From a virus: a stretch of DNA of 18,754 bases. The first letter of the stretch is position 1. Every line of letters starts with the position of its first letter. This document shows, piece after piece, positions 1,737 through 12,577 of this stretch. The stretch lies in the UHGV virus genome UHGV-0135550; one strand, 5' to 3'. Both the position numbers and the translations under genes were made by a program. The notes beneath the pieces are model-generated. The model was not told where the DNA came from and ran no database searches. It saw only the letters and a program-made list of their open reading frames with translations.

Positions 1737-1824
1737 ACTTTTTTCTCCTGTAAATAAAAAAGGGCCACCAGCGGCCCGTAAAAACACCCCGTCAAAGGCA
1801 CCCGCAGATGCCTTTTGTGTGGTG

Positions 1825-1977
1825 TTATTCAGATTTACGCAGTAAAGGCCGGAGCACGACCAGCGCCATCGCCACCAGCACACCATCTGCCAGCACCGAC
1901 ATCAGCCGTCCGGTGAAATCCACCGCCACTACCAGAAACAGCAGGATGGCAGCCAGCACAAGGCGCGCACTTTTCAC
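1825..1977 (-). CDS. Small hydrophobic protein (50 aa, GTG start), translationally coupled to the upstream TerB-like gene
   Basis: GTG at 1975-1977 overlaps the TerB-like stop TGA (1974-1976); product VKSARLVLAAILLFLVVAVDFTGRLMSVLADGVLVAMALVVLRPLLRKSE has two hydrophobic stretches; below the 60-aa cutoff of the ORF track. Confidence 0.3.
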   Translation of the reverse strand: MKSARLVLAAILLFLVVAVDFTGRLMSVLADGVLVAMALVVLRPLLRKSE

Positions 1978-2399
1978 AGGTACTGCTCCAGCGGTAGCTG
2001 AAGCGCCTGCGCAATTTTCTTGAGCTGTGTTTCTTCATCCGGACCAATGCCATCCTGGTCAGCGATATCCAGACACAGGCACAGCACATTAACTGCGTCA
2101 TCAGTACCTGCCACGTCAGCCAGCTGACGAAGGGCTTCAGCATTGGCAGAGCGCGGCGACGCTTCATAACGGGCGCGGATATTTGCACTCATTTGTGCAA
2201 TCTCACCGGAGAACGGCGCAAAGGCAGGAAGTGCTGCAATGGTTTTCTCCAGTACCGCGACTTCTTTCGCGTCACAGGTGTCGTCAGCATATGCAATGGA
2301 ATACGCGCCCCAGACGGTCGCCTCCACTGCGTCGCGGTTCTCCATCTTCTTCACTTCGGTAATGGCCTTGCGGGTTTTCTTTTTGAAAATACCAAACAT
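1974..2399 (-). CDS. TerB-like (tellurite-resistance TerB domain) protein
   Basis: 141 aa; C-terminal pattern DIADQDGIGPDEETQLKKIAQALQLP resembles the TerB signature (DGxxDxxExxxLxxIAxxLxL); AGGA RBS 9 nt upstream of the ATG at 2397-2399. Confidence 0.55.
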   Translation of the reverse strand: MFGIFKKKTRKAITEVKKMENRDAVEATVWGAYSIAYADDTCDAKEVAVLEKTIAALPAFAPFSGEIAQMSANIRARYEASPRSANAEALRQLADVAGTDDAVNVLCLCLDIADQDGIGPDEETQLKKIAQALQLPLEQYL

Positions 2400-2569
2400 C
2401 GTGACTTTTCCTTTTAGTGGGTGAGCCTGCGCCCGGGGGTGACCAGCCCACAGAGAAAGTCACACTGACCATCCCGTAAGCTCACCCCTGAAAGGCTCTG
2501 TGGTTTTTGATGTGCGCCGGGCGTGGCGCGGATATAAAAAAGGCCCGCCGTAGCGAGTCATGAAAAAAT

Positions 2570-2600
2570 GAATAAAAAAAACCGCCCGGTAGAGGCGGTT
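2570..2600 (-). terminator. Rho-independent terminator (minus strand) between the tRNA cluster and the TerB-like gene
   Basis: Perfect 7-bp stem AACCGCC / GGCGGTT (2580-2586 / 2594-2600), 7-nt loop; minus-strand reading is followed by a run of 9 T then ATTCATTTTTT. Confidence 0.6.
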
Positions 2601-2867
2601 AAGGATGTATTTCCAGGTTTTGCTTAATATATGATTAATCTCAATGTCATGGTGTTATTTACAACACCAGAATGATGCATCACCGACCCTCCCAGGAAAT
2701 ATAAAATCTCCACCGAAAATGCACCATTCTGCTGCCGTAAAAAAATCAGCACTGCGGCTACACCCGACCTCAAATCATAGCCAGAGAACAGAATGTTTTT
2801 TAACAATCTACCCCCACGTAATAAAAAAATACGTCAGTGCCGTTACTATAAGGCGTATTTCAAATGT

Positions 2868-2942
<75 letters not shown>

Positions 2943-2945
2943 ATA

Positions 2946-3021
<76 letters not shown>

Positions 3022-3023
3022 AA

Positions 3024-3100
3024 TGGACCGTCACCGGAGACTCGAACCCCGCGCCATCAACTTCGAAGGCTGATGCTCTATCCGGATGAGCTAGTGACGG
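3024..3100 (-). tRNA. tRNA-Arg (anticodon UCG)
   Basis: Minus strand CCGTCACTAGCTCATCCGGATAGAGCATCAGCCTTCGAAGTTGATGGCGCGGGGTTCGAGTCTCCGGTGACGGTCCA: 7-bp acceptor stem (C1-G72), D-loop with GG, anticodon loop CTTCGAA, T-loop TTCGAGT, encoded CCA. Confidence 0.7.
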
Positions 3101-3224
3101 TTTTATTGCCACATCCGTAACGACAGCCAGCGGGAATAATATGCATTCAGAATCAGCCGCCTTAGCTAATTGTGCAACCATCTGCTCTTTGCAAGTGCAC
3201 TTAACGTCCTGCGCCACTTTTCAG

Positions 3225-3253
3225 GCATAAAAAACCCGCTCATCGGCGGGTTT
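3225..3253 (-). terminator. Rho-independent terminator (minus strand) at the left boundary of the AT-rich island
   Basis: Stem AAACCCGC / GCGGGTTT (3232-3239 / 3246-3253), loop TCATCG; on the minus strand the stem is followed by TTTTATGCC extending the U-tract. Confidence 0.5.
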
Positions 3254-3298
3254 AAGCTGTGTGGCGTAGTAACCACTCTTAACACGATACAATACTTT

Positions 3299-3327
3299 TT
3301 GCGTACGCGTTAAGATTTTTTTATAAT
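3299..3327 (+). promoter_or_regulatory. Sigma70-like promoter for the large island ORF
   Basis: -35 TTGCGT (3299-3304), 17-bp spacer, perfect -10 TATAAT (3322-3327), about 70 nt upstream of the ATG at 3397. Confidence 0.4.
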
Positions 3328-3396
3328 TACTTACCTTTCTCACACCAAATGTAAAAGCAATATTTTTTGATAATCCTGTTGTTTAAAGGGAATAGC

Positions 3397-6300
3397 ATGA
3401 AATCAATTGTACACTTATCCGACTTACACTTATCAGACTCAAAAAAATATGGTTTTCACTGGAAGAAAGCCAAAGAACTGGTCACAGTATTAGTTAATGA
3501 TATACATTCATTAAGTAAAGAAAACAACCTCCAGATAGATGCCATTTTTTTTACTGGGGATTTAACGTTTTCTGGAACCAAAGAGCAATTTCAACTATTT
3601 GATGAACATTTCCTCTCTCCACTTATTCAAAAGCTGAACATCAGTAAAAAAAACATTTTTATAACCCCAGGCAATCATGATGTGGACAGAAGTAAAGTTC
3701 ATCCACTTGAAAAACAACTGCGAACTGGTTCGGACGAAAATTTCATATCATCATACTTTGATATGATAAATAATGGAAAGTATTCATGGGAACGTCTCTA
3801 CGAGTACTGTGAATATAATAAAACAATATTAGATCATCATTCTGATGTTGAACAATCTGGACGCATGATTACATGCTTTAAAGTAACAAACAAATTATAC
3901 GTCGTTAGCGTAAATAGCGCATGGTTAGCTATGGATGATAATGATATTGGTAACTTACGAATTACCCAAAAGCAAATTGATTTTATCAATCGTGCCAAAA
4001 TACCTTCTGATGCAAAAATAATATTATTATGCCATCATCCTTTAGATTGGTTGAATAAGAATGATCGTGACATTTTTTCAACATTTATTGAAAAAAAAGT
4101 TTCAATGTTCTTTTTTGGTCATATGCATGATTTTAAACAAAAACTAGAATCTAGTTTTTGTGAAAACATCACCCTCTTTTTGCAAGCAGGAACTTTGGAT
4201 ACTAGTGAAAATGTATCAGGCTATTCATTAATAAATTTTAATAGTTCAAATGTCATATCAGACGGAAGAATTTTTTATAGAAAATATAATAAAGAAAAAA
4301 CATGCTATGAACCATGGGAAGAAAGAGGAAATGGTGGTGTTTTTGATTTCACCACTGAGAAAACTCTAACTTTTGACTCTGAAAAATTTGCAACATTATC
4401 TAATGAGATTCTAGAGAAAACTGATAAGGATTTATTAATTAACATTGGAATCTCTGATGAAAAGAAAAAAAGTCTAAGAACTCTATTTACTGAACCAAAT
4501 TTCCTTGAATTTGCTCTTGGAGCCATGCCTTCTATGGAGATTAAGTCCACACAAGAATTACTAGAAGGACGAAACAACCTTGTGATTGTAGGAAACCATA
4601 GCTCAGGTAAAACATCTCTTTTAAAATACCTATTCATTAAGAGTCTAGAAAAACAAGCCAGCAAAGACTTCAGTAACTTTGCATTTTTCTTAGATTTAAA
4701 TGCAATTGAATTAAATAGCTTAAATACAATTGTAAGCGCATTATGTACACAATATTTCAATGCAGATTCGACCACATCTTTTGAAGAAAAAATTAAAAAA
4801 ATGTTACATGAGGGAAGATGTGTTATATATATTGATAATCTGGACAATATAAATACAAAAGAACAATGTGTAATTTCTGATTTTTTTATAAAATTCAAAG
4901 AATGTAGATTTATCGTAACTGCTGGCTATAATAATTCAGATCTGGTAGTTAAAATATTATCAGATGAAAGTAAAGCTAAATTTCATGCAATTGCTATAGG
5001 TTCATTACGCAGATCTAATGTTCGCGATATTGTATCAAGATGGCACGACACAACATCACAAAATATAATATATAAAGAAATCACGCGAACAATCAACAAT
5101 TCGCAACTTCCTCATAATTATTTTACATACTCAATGCTTTTAGCTATTTATGAAGTTGATCATGACGTTAAAGGAATATTAAGTGAGTCTGATATTATAG
5201 AAAACTTCATAGAAATTTTGCTTCGTAAACATTTTATGGATACTCCGCCTAATAAGCCACAATTTAAAGAACTTCGACATTTTCTTGGATATTTAGGATT
5301 TACATTATTCAAAAACAAATGTAATTTTATTTCAAATAATGAACTTCTGCAGACTGCAATAATTTTCAATAGAGATACCATGCATGATTATCAAGTAGAA
5401 GACTATATAAAACCATTAAAAGAATGTGGAATATTGAAAGAAGAGCTATGTAATGTGATTTTCTCGCAGCCTTGCTTTTTATACTATTCCATCGCTTATT
5501 TCATGAAGCATAACGAAGAGCTAAAGAAAGAAATTTTATCCGATAATAATTACCTACATCTACATAAAGTTATTGAATACTATTCATCGCAGAACTCATC
5601 TAGTCTTGATTTATTATACTTACTTAAAAAGAAGACTAATGCAATCAAATCTTCTTTATCTGAACGAATGCTCGAAGATAAGGGAATAAATATTGAAGAT
5701 ATAAAGATTGAAGACTCTAATACTTTCTCTATTTTAGATATGGTATCAACCCAAGATGATTTCGAAAAAAAGATAGAATCACTCCGTGCAGATAGAGAAA
5801 AAGATGACGCGCGACTAGATGAATTATCACCTTTATCTGATAAAGATAAAAAAGCTAATATATCAAATGTTAGAGCTGAAGGTAATAATAATCTGTTACA
5901 TGATCTTATTAACACTTTATCTCTTTATGCAAGGGTATTCCGTAGTACTGAATTATCTATGGAAAGAGAAAATATATTAAATATATTTAATGACCTTGTA
6001 AAGGGTTATGTTTTTTACATGAAAGCGTCACTAGTACTAATGGATGATTCATTTGTTCTTCCAGTAATACTCCCTGCATTAGAAAAGAAAATGCAAGAGG
6101 ATAAATTAACCGATAACGAAAGGCAACGAGTTTTTGAAATGTTTAAACTAGTATTGTCTTTAGTTCGCTCAATGATCCCAAATAACATACAGTTTATTAT
6201 GAGCAATGACTTAAGCTCGAAAAAACCACGTATTGCAAACATTATTACTGAATCAAAAGACTCAAATAGCAATCCTGTAGAAAAGGCTATTTTAACTTTC

Positions 6301-6549
6301 ACCTTAATGGATATTAAAGATGAAATGGTTATACAATTAGCTAACGATTTAGCAAAGATACAAAACAAAGTTGTTCAAGAATCTCTTTTCTTCAAGATTA
6401 ATCAAATTATAACAAGTAACTATGATTTAAAAAGAACTGAAGAAGAAGCATTGAAAGAGTTAGCAAAAAACATTGGCATTAAAAGAAAATTAATTCTCAC
6501 ACCCAAGATTAGTGATGCCTTTAATACGTTAAACCGCATAGGACATTAA
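3397..6549 (+). CDS. Large multidomain protein: N-terminal calcineurin-like metallophosphoesterase, central NACHT/STAND-like P-loop NTPase, C-terminal helical domain; candidate antiphage defense protein
   Basis: Metallophosphoesterase motifs DxH (D9-L-H11), GD (54-55), GNHD (92-95), HH (213-214), GHMH (241-244); Walker A GNHSSGKT (399-406); Walker B-like VIYIDNLD (about 476-483) followed by FIVTAG; ATG at 3397 with AAAGGGA RBS (TTG at 3367 is the ORF-track start). Confidence 0.8.
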   Translation: MKSIVHLSDLHLSDSKKYGFHWKKAKELVTVLVNDIHSLSKENNLQIDAIFFTGDLTFSGTKEQFQLFDEHFLSPLIQKLNISKKNIFITPGNHDVDRSKVHPLEKQLRTGSDENFISSYFDMINNGKYSWERLYEYCEYNKTILDHHSDVEQSGRMITCFKVTNKLYVVSVNSAWLAMDDNDIGNLRITQKQIDFINRAKIPSDAKIILLCHHPLDWLNKNDRDIFSTFIEKKVSMFFFGHMHDFKQKLESSFCENITLFLQAGTLDTSENVSGYSLINFNSSNVISDGRIFYRKYNKEKTCYEPWEERGNGGVFDFTTEKTLTFDSEKFATLSNEILEKTDKDLLINIGISDEKKKSLRTLFTEPNFLEFALGAMPSMEIKSTQELLEGRNNLVIVGNHSSGKTSLLKYLFIKSLEKQASKDFSNFAFFLDLNAIELNSLNTIVSALCTQYFNADSTTSFEEKIKKMLHEGRCVIYIDNLDNINTKEQCVISDFFIKFKECRFIVTAGYNNSDLVVKILSDESKAKFHAIAIGSLRRSNVRDIVSRWHDTTSQNIIYKEITRTINNSQLPHNYFTYSMLLAIYEVDHDVKGILSESDIIENFIEILLRKHFMDTPPNKPQFKELRHFLGYLGFTLFKNKCNFISNNELLQTAIIFNRDTMHDYQVEDYIKPLKECGILKEELCNVIFSQPCFLYYSIAYFMKHNEELKKEILSDNNYLHLHKVIEYYSSQNSSSLDLLYLLKKKTNAIKSSLSERMLEDKGINIEDIKIEDSNTFSILDMVSTQDDFEKKIESLRADREKDDARLDELSPLSDKDKKANISNVRAEGNNNLLHDLINTLSLYARVFRSTELSMERENILNIFNDLVKGYVFYMKASLVLMDDSFVLPVILPALEKKMQEDKLTDNERQRVFEMFKLVLSLVRSMIPNNIQFIMSNDLSSKKPRIANIITESKDSNSNPVEKAILTFTLMDIKDEMVIQLANDLAKIQNKVVQESLFFKINQIITSNYDLKRTEEEALKELAKNIGIKRKLILTPKISDAFNTLNRIGH

Positions 6550-6575
6550 AATGCCACTTTTTTGATATAATTAAA

Positions 6576-6603
6576 AACCACCCGTAACAGGGTGGTTCTC
6601 TAC
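6576..6603. terminator. Hairpin terminator between the convergent large ORF and small ORF (strong on minus strand, possible on plus)
   Basis: Perfect 8-bp stem AACCACCC / GGGTGGTT (6576-6583 / 6590-6597), loop GTAACA; minus-strand reading is followed by TTTTTAATTAT; sits 27 nt after the large ORF stop. Confidence 0.6.
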
Positions 6604-6652
6604 CTCTGCTGCAATATATCTCAAATAATTAAAACGAGCAGGAATTTACCTA

Positions 6653-6832
6653 TCAAAAAACTTGACTACCGGAATTCGAATTTAAAACCCCATTAGTATT
6701 TTTAGGTTTTGTCATTTTCAAATTAGCTTTCATACTACATGCCATAAAATATTGGGTAAGAAAAATGGTATTTAAATGATTCCAAGAAGTAGTTTTATCA
6801 TAAAAATAATTAATTCTTTGTTTCTTATTCAT
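6653..6832 (-). CDS. Small AT-rich ORF (59 aa) of unknown function, convergent with the large island gene
   Basis: ATG at 6830-6832 preceded by a strong RBS (AAGGAG, 6-nt spacing); no motif I recognise; followed by the 6576-6597 terminator. Confidence 0.35.
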   Translation of the reverse strand: MNKKQRINYFYDKTTSWNHLNTIFLTQYFMACSMKANLKMTKPKNTNGVLNSNSGSQVF

Positions 6833-6907
6833 GCACACTCCTTAGTAAAATATAGAAATAAAAGACAAATCACTTATAAATGTCATGTTAAAAAAATTCT
6901 CATCATG

Positions 6908-6936
6908 ATTATTGATGAGTGATTTTATATTATCAA
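6908..6936 (-). promoter_or_regulatory. Candidate sigma70 promoter downstream of Q (possible late promoter PR'-like, or promoter of the small ORF)
   Basis: On the minus strand: -35 TTGATA (6931-6936), 17-bp spacer, -10 AATAAT (6908-6913); AT-rich context so chance matches are likely. Confidence 0.3.
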
Positions 6937-7063
6937 AAAATTATATTATTAACAACTCTTGTTTATTACTCAACCAATACCAAAATCATTAGCCACGCAT
7001 ATATATTTTCAAACATATAAAAACAACACACAATATAAAATCCAGCCACAAAAACTCGCACTT

Positions 7064-7408
7064 CTATTTTATGAAATAAAAACACCCTTCAATAAAACCT
7101 AAAGCAGTTTGCAATTCCTTTCTAATCGTACCGTCCGAACATTTTCGCCTCTTCGCAATAGTTCTAAGCGAAATACCAATAACAAAATGAGCTATAATTA
7201 GCTCATATTCCTCTGGTTTATACTTACACAGGCGGGCAACACAGCCGTCTATCATGATGCCTTCATCATCATCACACTGAAGGCGTATTTTTTTACCATG
7301 AGGTAAAAGCCCCTTAAAGCCTGCTGCTATCGGCTGCCAGTCCACACCACTGTTATCTGCTGCAGCCCATGCTCCCCAGCGGTCCAAAACTTCATACATA
7401 TCACGCAT
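7064..7408 (-). CDS. Late-gene antitermination protein Q (small Q family, non-lambda type)
   Basis: N-terminal LDRWGAWAA motif and Cys-rich core (QCDDDEGIMIDGC ... KCSDG) as I recall for phage antiterminator Q family; ATG at 7406-7408 with GGAGAAA RBS (TTG at 7423 is the ORF-track start). Confidence 0.75.
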   Translation of the reverse strand: MRDMYEVLDRWGAWAAADNSGVDWQPIAAGFKGLLPHGKKIRLQCDDDEGIMIDGCVARLCKYKPEEYELIIAHFVIGISLRTIAKRRKCSDGTIRKELQTALGFIEGCFYFIK

Positions 7409-11748: not shown

Positions 11749-12577
11749 GACGATGCCCTCCGCTGATATTCAGGAGACGGTGAATATGAAAATTAGCCTT
11801 ATCCGCCAAACGGATACGTTCAGCCTGCAAGTTAAGAAGGGTTTCTACCAGAACCTGATGCGCCTGCGGATCCGAAAGAGTTACCTTGCGCAGAGCACGT
11901 AGTGCAGTTGTTACATAACTGAGTTTATGTAAGTCTTCATCATTCAGACGAGTGAGGGCTGGGACAGTAGCCATGATGGCAGCCTCCGTATGCAATGGAT
12001 AACTTCCACCACCGGAAACGCCAATTTCGCTGGTGGTGAACTGAGCAGGGTTGGCGTAACCGGCGCATACGGAAACCGGCGCACCTTTCGGTGCCCCCAC
12101 CCAGCCCACCATAATTTGGGTATAGCTGAGTTGTAGCAACAAAAAAGACGCTAACGCGCCAATTGTCGCCGTATGCAATTCCAGGACGCCAATCCCGGCA
12201 CCCGCTTTATAAGGTGCCTGAACAGTGTAACGTCCCGGAATGGCAGAATCAATGTGCTGGTGGTCCTTCACACTCAACAAAATCACGCCTGAATTTCCAC
12301 AAAGGACTAAAGCACTCATGCGGGTAGTCTTTGCGAAGATAGATAACGCGCTGTGTTTCTGGCTCCCAACGAATAACATGGACATAAAGCCCTCTTCCGT
12401 CACGAAACCAGCGGTTAAGTTCCTGCACAACTCGCCCCCCACAGTCAGGTAAAGTTCTCTGTGGTTACTTACAGCCAGGTGATTTGGTAATCTGCATTCA
12501 TGCCGTAACAACAGGTGTGCAGCGACACTGACCACCAGCTGTTGCGACAAACGGTTATTTGCCGTTAAACTGTTCAT
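11741..12577 (-). CDS. Hypothetical protein (278 aa) in the early-right operon
   Basis: ATG at 12575-12577 with GGAGAAA RBS; ATGA overlap with the upstream gene stop and 8-nt overlap with the downstream gene; no recognisable motif. Confidence 0.45.
   Translation of the reverse strand: MNSLTANNRLSQQLVVSVAAHLLLRHECRLPNHLAVSNHRELYLTVGGELCRNLTAGFVTEEGFMSMLFVGSQKHSALSIFAKTTRMSALVLCGNSGVILLSVKDHQHIDSAIPGRYTVQAPYKAGAGIGVLELHTATIGALASFLLLQLSYTQIMVGWVGAPKGAPVSVCAGYANPAQFTTSEIGVSGGGSYPLHTEAAIMATVPALTRLNDEDLHKLSYVTTALRALRKVTLSDPQAHQVLVETLLNLQAERIRLADKANFHIHRLLNISGGHRHA

Follow-up and report, generated by a model that had tools for sequence, protein, structure and literature searches.

The window analyzed here is the whole 18,754-nt stretch of the virus genome UHGV-0135550. 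Its minus strand carries two overlapping genes, tciA and tciB, between a block of tRNA genes and the genes for two holins and an endolysin (Table 1). At the junction the minus strand reads ...CAG TAC CTG TGA / GTG AAA AGT GCG..., with the GTG start codon of tciB overlapping the tciA stop codon as GTGA, and a Shine-Dalgarno sequence (GGAG) lies 8 nt upstream of this GTG.

Table 1. Genes and landmarks of the tciA-tciB locus, with positions in the window
Feature	Position	Strand	Remarks
tRNA-Arg, tRNA-Thr and tRNA-Gly genes	3100-2868		upstream of tciA
Intrinsic terminator	2580..2600	minus	3' of tRNA-Gly; terminator scan
Intrinsic terminator, hairpin plus T run	2544..2557	minus	5' boundary of the cassette; terminator scan
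Conserved 5' leader, including the tciA ribosome-binding site AAAAGGAAAAG	2400..2543	minus
tciA, 141-aa TerB-fold ORF	2399-1974	minus	cytoplasmic protein
tciB, 50-aa DUF3927 peptide	1977-1825	minus	GTG start; predicted inner-membrane peptide
Intrinsic terminator	1762..1777	minus	between tciB and the first holin gene; scan and sequence
Phage_holin_8 gene	ATG at 1737		3' of tciB; followed by Phage_holin_3_7 and M15 peptidase (endolysin)

The closest complete genome is that of Escherichia coli EC71, which is 100% identical to the window from 1700 to 2650; over the whole window it aligns to 82% of the length, at 99.5% identity. Its annotation was applied only to the part from Q to the lysis genes, where the coordinates agree. 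In RefSeq, the order in EC71 is antiterminator Q, a small hypothetical gene, a metallophosphoesterase gene on the opposite strand, three tRNA genes, 'tellurite resistance TerB family protein', 'DUF3927 family protein', two holins, an M15 peptidase and terminase. The low-GC, opposite-strand gene between Q and the tRNA genes is a PDC-S60/DS8-like candidate defense gene.

An earlier note on this DNA had placed the pair between terminators and holins, and this arrangement holds, with hairpins at 2600-2580 and 2557-2544 upstream and the holin genes downstream. The 2580-2600 terminator is common only to loci with the same tRNA-Gly flank and is part of the tRNA block, outside the tciAB cassette. A sub-threshold STnc100/CyaR-like Rfam match lies over it (STnc100 24.9 bits vs. 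a gathering score of 47). The 2557-2544 hairpin is conserved where the upstream flanks diverge, and in other genera compensatory changes maintain the pairing of its stem (pairs 6-23 to 12-17). Downstream of tciB, a second hairpin (AAAGGCAtctgcgggTGCCTTT) precedes the 1777-1762 terminator, which is also conserved in phage phiP27.

The 141-aa protein has a TerB fold

We compared the 141-aa protein with family profiles and solved structures. It matches the Pfam family TerB (PF05099) at 28.1 bits (gathering score 24.4, E 2.7e-6) and PHROG 632 'tellurite resistance' at E 2.7e-63. A PDB search with the single TciA sequence gave only spurious PNPase matches, whereas a profile of 49 family members matched the Klebsiella pneumoniae TerB structure 2JXU over its full length (E 3.8e-24). 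TciA thus has the helical bundle related to solved TerB structures. The proposal of the earlier note that the protein is TerB-like is therefore borne out, and profile searches assigned it to no standard lysis or structural family.

Pairwise, TciA is only 19% identical to the canonical TerB of the ter operon, and with this degree of sequence identity the function of the latter may not transfer to TciA. At the profile level, TerB of the ter cluster (terZABCDE(F)) has the same fold and length and is collinear with TciA over the full length. Both paired acidic 'ADG...E' motifs, one per half of the protein, are present in the family alignment. The near-invariant residues D39, E46, E66, G117 and E122 are all found in the protein studied here. 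The otherwise near-invariant G40 of the first 'ADG' motif is replaced by D, a variant found in 12 of 80 IMG/VR loci. TciA has a basic N-terminus (MFGIFKKKTRK, +6 in 22 residues) followed by an acidic body, with a net charge of -6, and an N-terminal MFGxFxKK motif is kept even in relatives with 30% identity.

The dN/dS ratio of tciA is 0.04-0.09, with synonymous sites near saturation, and that of tciB is about 0.07-0.6. Judged from these substitution rates, both genes are under purifying selection.

The 50-aa partner is a DUF3927 peptide

The 50-aa peptide matches Pfam DUF3927 (E 2.4e-14) and PHROG 1470 'TciB-like' (E 2.5e-24), a family that PHROGs places in the category 'moron' and not 'lysis'. 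These two are its only matches in Pfam and PHROGs, and a scan of both proteins against NCBIfam gave no matches. TciB alignments show no variation at D31 and none or almost none at D20 and S27; by their helical angles, these three residues lie on one helical face.

The earlier note had described the peptide as two-helix, and here the evidence is divided. The hydropathy profile shows two peaks separated by a dip at about residues 20-27, in agreement with two helices, and the basic residues at both ends would suit a hairpin whose two termini are cytoplasmic. AlphaFold2, on the other hand, models a single continuous helix from residue 2 to 46 (pLDDT 92.8). We also considered whether TciB could be a fragment or relative of TerC and rejected this (hhalign probability 0.5%). 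A natural 196-aa TciA-TciB 'fusion' (P0053) was set aside as well, as it looks like a frameshifted P1-type sequence.

The pair corresponds to tciA and tciB of phage P1

The two proteins are almost certainly the TciA and TciB of phage P1 type. TciA is 84% identical to P1 TciA over 141 of 141 residues, and TciB is 49% identical to its P1 counterpart. The pair, which the earlier note had not recognized as this family, is not new: it is named and annotated, and RefSeq has annotated entries for identical proteins. Existing records cover the genes and their names, the pairing in P1 and the frequent occurrence near lysis operons of prophages. We are therefore not dealing with a new kind of element, and the genes are common in E. 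coli prophages and in P1-like phage-plasmids.

In P1 (NC_005856) tRNA genes enclose the order tciA-tciB-tciC, with the Pban promoter, which is under C1 control, upstream of the three genes and ban downstream. P1 TciA also has 141 aa, P1 tciB has the same start/stop overlap, and both the P1 pair and the pair studied here adjoin phage tRNA genes. The two loci differ in their operons: the pair in the window lies in an apparently Q-dependent late operon upstream of holins, whereas the P1 genes belong to the C1-repressed ban operon. P1 also lacks the conserved leader of ~145 nt and the flanking terminators that are present here. The third gene, tciC, is absent from our locus, where the interval between tciB and the holin gene has no suitable ORF. 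When P1 TciC was searched by tblastn against 16 related loci, only one P1-like locus (L013) matched, and tciC appears to be specific to P1-like elements.

We found no experimental function for any TciA or TciB in the literature. A CRISPRi map of P1 classed tciA, tciB and tciC as non-essential (PMC10695390). In a survey of P1-like phage-plasmids, tciABC is among eight highly variable regions and was lost in about half of subgroup 1 (PMC9603915). A preprint on the P1 transcriptome groups the tci genes with cell-division genes, by name only, and TerB (PF05099) is one of the conserved neighbors that a 2026 preprint gives for Pas sRNAs.

Pairing of tciA and tciB is conserved across phages

To estimate how common the pair is, we searched 5426 complete E. 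coli genomes with the 575-bp sequence of both genes and obtained matches in 352, of which 165 hold a near-full-length copy of the chromosomal type. The same search returned 171 places on plasmids; the examples listed are ~78-105 kb in size and roughly 80% identical, as for P1. When the leader and the start of the holin gene were added to the query, 163 complete E. coli genomes held at least 80% of it. The two separate searches thus gave 163 and 165 genomes, which indicates that, in complete E. coli genomes, the chromosomal form lies almost always beside this holin cassette.

In IMG/VR there are at least 374 relatives, and the best 80 are all 94-100% identical. The gene order in these best 80 loci is Q, an optional methyltransferase gene, 0-5 variable tRNA genes, tciA and tciB, then an occasional DUF4145 insertion, followed by holin, holin and M15. 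An overlapping tciB partner was found by tblastn in 79 of these 80 (the best of at least 374) and by an ORF check in all 80. The GTGA overlap with a hydrophobic 50-aa peptide, which the earlier note had read in the sequence, is kept with an intact tciB ORF in 80 of 80.

Pairing also extends to other species. In other species, 13 loci reach beyond the end of tciA (from Citrobacter, Enterobacter, Pseudescherichia, Erwinia, Pantoea, Rosenbergiella, Buttiauxella, Scandinavium and others), and all 13 contain an overlapping DUF3927-like ORF of ~50 aa, joined to tciA by GTGA, TGATG or TAATG. An exhaustive search of 1.84 billion cluster representatives retrieved only 151 TciA relatives at E <= 0.001, most of them stand-alone proteins of 140-150 aa with 28-40% identity. 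Among the relatives with readable contigs, the partner is a called DUF3927 gene for those with 56% and 29% identity and an uncalled 51-aa DUF3927-like ORF for one with 37% identity (L020, 4453-4608). For a relative with 33% identity, the DUF3927 gene follows after one inserted gene. Some distant relatives have no DUF3927 partner, such as PMBT3 and a relative with 28% identity (L033). The adjacency and overlap of the two genes are nearly invariant down to about 30-37% TciA identity.

In total, 91 phage records encode a TciA-like protein. For instance, in Vibrio phage BUCT194 the TciA-like gene comes directly after a phage terC gene (Pfam E 3.1e-41), and no DUF3927 gene is present.

The pair occurs in at least five genomic contexts

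The position of the pair varies, and we found it in at least five contexts; the conserved feature is the pairing itself. The first context is the late slot of E. coli-type prophages (Q, tRNA genes, tciAB, holins), to which our locus belongs. In the second, the pair is on the same strand as a cI-like repressor gene and 3' of it, among the early-left genes. In Enterobacter this early-left pair is followed by YdfE and then int, and in Yersinia by KilA-N and Lambda_Kil; other examples come from an unassigned lambdoid, Erwinia and Scandinavium. The third context is the ban operon of P1 and of P1-like loci in Escherichia and Pantoea. The fourth is found in FSL SP-076, a virulent N4-like Salmonella phage: its early region carries the pair, again coupled, between replication genes and a MoxR-like ATPase gene, and the partner of TciA matches DUF3927 at E 6.6e-12. 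In the fifth, Erwinia jumbo phages, tciA lies within a tRNA array. Its 59-aa partner there matches the TciB profile at 88% probability and is missing the two conserved Asp residues. TciA-TciB coupling probably extends to an Erwinia jumbo phage too.

The slot itself can hold other cargo. Phage phiP27 has the same holin-holin-M15 cassette, with stx2eA and stx2eB in place of tciAB, together with a remnant of about 100 nt from the 3' end of tciB that carries a 1-nt deletion. In both phages the slot is in the same position between Q and the lysis genes, with tRNA genes upstream and holin-holin-M15 downstream. The cargo of phiP27 is a toxin, whereas for tciAB no effect beyond the bacterial cell is known.

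These contexts bear on the possibility that the pair is an accessory of lysis timing, as the earlier note had suggested. TciB would then modulate the adjacent holins, in an antiholin-like or holin-stabilizing manner, and TciA would regulate TciB. The location fits this idea, as tciAB is directly 5' of two holin genes on the same late transcript and the chromosomal form is almost always holin-linked (163 vs. 165 E. coli genomes; the 80 IMG/VR loci). TciB is moreover a small hydrophobic membrane peptide. Against it, the pair has no neighboring lysis genes in P1, in the early-left operons, in FSL SP-076 or in the Erwinia jumbo phages, the holin cassette of phiP27 functions without tciAB, a terminator separates tciB from the holin gene, and no holin family of Pfam or PHROGs is matched by TciB. 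Because the pair does not travel with lysis genes, we conclude that it is probably not a component of the lysis machinery, and we consider a lysis-timing role very unlikely. Some lysis-related benefit within the E. coli lineage is possible. The broader suggestion of the earlier note, that these are accessory rather than core lysis genes, agrees both with the phiP27 cassette, which lacks the pair, and with the loci where the pair is found away from lysis genes.

Expression during lytic growth and the defense reading

Every context of tciAB is a lytic-growth transcription unit or a virulent phage. The gene order suggests that what the contexts share is expression in the early or late phase of lytic growth, together with dispensability under laboratory conditions. 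A scan for sigma-70 promoters between the terminators and tciA gave none at the threshold used; a promoter inside the conserved leader is a possible alternative to expression through Q only.

This bears on a second explanation, in which a lysogen would express TciAB against other phages or pore-forming colicins, in the manner of ter Phi/PacB, Bunzi and Shango. The ter cluster is tied to phage inhibition and colicin resistance, the validated systems Bunzi and Shango contain TerB domains, and the accessory slot adjoins the PDC-S60-like candidate defense gene. We nevertheless regard a defense function in the lysogen as improbable. No model of PADLOC-DB v2, which includes Bunzi and Shango, matched either protein at E <= 0.1. 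With a covariation-supported terminator directly upstream and no promoter found, expression at our locus appears to be Q-dependent. The other contexts are repressor-controlled lytic operons, and the pair is also carried by strictly virulent phages, for which there is no lysogen to protect. The variable position of the pair argues both against a lysis-specific role and against a defense gene expressed in the lysogen. The defense-associated reading that the earlier note had offered is not supported, given the lack of a PADLOC match and the lytic or virulent nature of every context.

Toxin and tellurite-resistance readings

The order of the genes, a soluble protein first and then a translationally coupled small hydrophobic peptide, also brings to mind a toxin and its neutralizer, with TciB damaging the membrane or killing the host and TciA restraining it, or an inhibitor of cell division like Kil or Icd. 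In Yersinia prophages the pair shares an operon with Lambda_Kil and KilA-N, the P1 name includes 'inhibition of cell division', and both the P1 annotation and the transcriptome preprint place the pair among cell-division genes, on the basis of its name only. The P1 name, however, rests on homology to ter genes only. Unlike generic membrane-toxic peptides, TciB has conserved polar residues (D31, D20 and S27) within the hydrophobic stretch. Conservation is also much stronger in the soluble partner than in the peptide, whereas typical toxin-antitoxin pairs show the opposite. A toxic or division-inhibiting role therefore seems highly doubtful to us.

The TerB family assignment and the product names in databases could be taken to indicate a genuine determinant of tellurite resistance. 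TciA is, however, a stand-alone TerB-like protein: its neighbors in the window are tRNA genes, tciB and holin genes, with no terZ, terA, terC, terD or terE nearby, and its identity to the operon TerB is low, as given above. The paper describing phage PMBT3 argues that a terB without other ter genes is unlikely to confer resistance (PMC8421299). We consider this explanation extremely improbable.

A possible role at the inner membrane

Taken together, the explanation that we find probable, if only just, is that tciA and tciB form a dispensable two-gene cassette that moves between phage genomes and acts at the inner membrane during lytic growth. We call the cassette dispensable because it is non-essential by CRISPRi in P1, has been lost in about half of the P1 subgroup-1 phage-plasmids and is replaced by stx2e in phiP27. 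That it is an accessory acting in lytic growth, rather than a component of lysis, seems quite likely.

From the gene order, tciAB in the window would be expressed late in lytic growth and be silent in lysogens, with transcription only by the Q-modified, terminator-resistant RNA polymerase. The start/stop overlap would couple translation, with both proteins made together. TciB would then insert into the inner membrane and tether TciA there, and the basic N-terminus of TciA may favor the membrane surface.

The tethering step is drawn from analogy with three systems. In the first, the ter operon, terB is directly followed by the membrane-protein gene terC, as tciA is here by tciB, and TerB has been reported as an interaction partner of TerC (PMC11003894); unlike the gene order, the membrane partners do not correspond, TerC being unrelated to the 50-aa TciB. 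DjlA consists of a transmembrane helix, a TerB-like domain and a J domain. Transmembrane helices are also present in the TerB protein of Bunzi, for which a function in 'membrane surveillance' has been suggested. DjlA and the TerB proteins of Bunzi and Shango thus have a TerB domain at the inner membrane, as we propose for TciA. In contrast to them, the membrane element of our pair is a separate gene product, and the pair has no J domain, helicase or ATPase partner. On these analogies, a membrane complex of TciA and TciB is fairly probable, and it may act on the membrane or the ion state of the infected cell.

What such a complex would do can be stated more tentatively. [quoted passage not shown] By analogy, the TciA-TciB complex might protect the energized inner membrane during the latent period against depolarizing insults such as colicins and superinfecting phages, and a membrane protected in this way might, as a guess, prevent premature firing of the holins. 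We regard such a guarding role specifically as rather unlikely. A more detailed version, in which the pair is a minimal 'membrane guard' of temperate and virulent enterobacterial phages, with Asp20, Ser27 and Asp31 of TciB forming a cation or proton site and TciA sensing or gating it, is more speculative, and we think it improbable. If a guarding role were true, the infected cell would stay energized in the face of colicins, superinfecting phages and stress, the holin clock would not run early, and the TerB domain would have its first defined activity.

The TerB domain recurs in stress and defense systems, and the cassette is a strongly conserved module (TciA dN/dS < 0.1) common to lambdoid, P1-like, N4-like and jumbo phages. 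With 141 and 50 aa, the pair is about the simplest system for working out how TerB acts at a membrane. Its presence in the same late-operon slot as Shiga toxin genes also bears on the exchange of cargo among relatives of Stx phages.

A conserved leader precedes the cassette

The leader of ~145 nt upstream of tciA is 84-100% identical across genera, whereas the synonymous sites of tciA differ at 67-69%. The identity of the leader, set against the divergence of these sites, implies that something constrains the leader sequence. We looked for a conserved RNA structure as one source of such constraint and could not establish it: the single-sequence fold has a z of -1.95, the RNAalifold consensus differs between alignments of 6 and 14 leader sequences, and the covariation term is near 0. 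The leader matched no Rfam family, and the yybP-ykoY riboswitch, which controls TerC-family genes, is among the families that did not match. The leader could be an unrecognized cis-regulatory RNA. It also contains a CCUUU stretch that could pair with the AAAGG of the ribosome-binding site.

Genomic setting of tciAB

The gene pair tciAB encodes a TerB-fold protein (TciA) and a DUF3927 membrane peptide (TciB). Three kinds of phage that are not related to one another have it beside tRNA genes of their own: the window prophage, P1 and the Erwinia jumbo phage Caitlin (loci including L001 and L116). The arrangements differ. In the window prophage the tRNAs are Arg, Thr and Gly, whereas P1 has tRNA Asn and Thr upstream of tciAB and Ile downstream, and in Caitlin tciAB is located within a tRNA array. 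The 80 best IMG/VR relatives (out of at least 374), all of them prophages, differ in their upstream tRNA set, which comprises between 0 and 5 genes, but tciAB and the holins are constant.

Features of the window discussed in this section
Feature	Position (nt)	Strand	Remark
tRNA genes Arg, Thr, Gly	2868-3100	-	adjoin tciAB
tciA leader	2400-2543	-	cross-genus conservation
Sub-threshold sRNA matches	2530-2644	-	Rfam; spans both terminators after tRNA-Gly
Metallophosphoesterase gene, 1060 aa	3367-6549	+	PADLOC PDC-S60 match
C4 antisense RNA and isrK Hfq-binding RNA, adjacent	12029-12217	-	Rfam

Comparison between genera shows 84-100% conservation of the tciA leader, in contrast to the synonymous sites of tciA itself, which are near saturation. 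Judged by these sequence comparisons, it qualifies as a constrained non-coding element. An Rfam search of the leader returned no family match and consensus folding gave no stable fold; a CCUUU stretch within it could pair with the Shine-Dalgarno AAAGG. Two Rfam hits in the terminator cluster fall short of the threshold: STnc100, a prophage sRNA, at 24.9 bits (E 0.007) against a gathering score of 47, and CyaR at 29.4 bits. An sRNA gene may have its 3' end within this cluster.

Cargo replacement and insertion

In phiP27, stx2eA and stx2eB occupy the exact site that tciA holds in the window prophage. What survives of tciB there is a stretch of roughly 100 nt from its 3' end, carrying a 1-nt deletion (L003, about 4080-4225) and overlapped by the opposite-strand gene L27, annotated as a hypothetical protein. 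This remnant is the footprint of cargo replacement at the slot. The tciB-holin junction is an insertion point too, because some prophages have acquired two genes there, an opposite-strand DUF4145 gene and a small hypothetical one (E. coli TUM9757, L005 5135-6215; also L035 and L037).

The virulent N4-like vibriophage BUCT194 carries a phage-borne mini ter cluster (L118 1-2926), whose genes encode, in order, a TerD-domain protein, an annotated TerB family member, a TerC (Pfam E 3.1e-41) and a TciA-like TerB. A Pfam scan of the annotated TerB family gene gave no TerB match. The region lacks a DUF3927 gene, and TerC may substitute for TciB.

Other elements of the prophage

The block at about 3200-7200 is a foreign insert, because its GC content is 27-35% versus 47-58% in the flanks. 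Its metallophosphoesterase gene, with Q on one side and the tRNAs on the other, is antisense to the presumed late transcript. In PADLOC the protein hits PDC-S60, a candidate defence family, at E 2.1e-97; its NCBIfam match to DS8_antiphage, at 170 bits, falls far under the 790-bit cut-off.

The C4 antisense RNA (80.7 bits) beside isrK (61.2 bits) constitutes a P1/P7-style antisense immunity element within a lambdoid prophage. In E. coli EC71, the closest complete genome, the corresponding region contains a Rha-family regulator gene.

At codon 40 of tciA (2280-2282), Asp replaces a nearly invariant Gly, turning the first TerB ADG motif into ADD. The variant recurs in 12 of the 80 IMG/VR loci and is thus an allele in circulation rather than an error.
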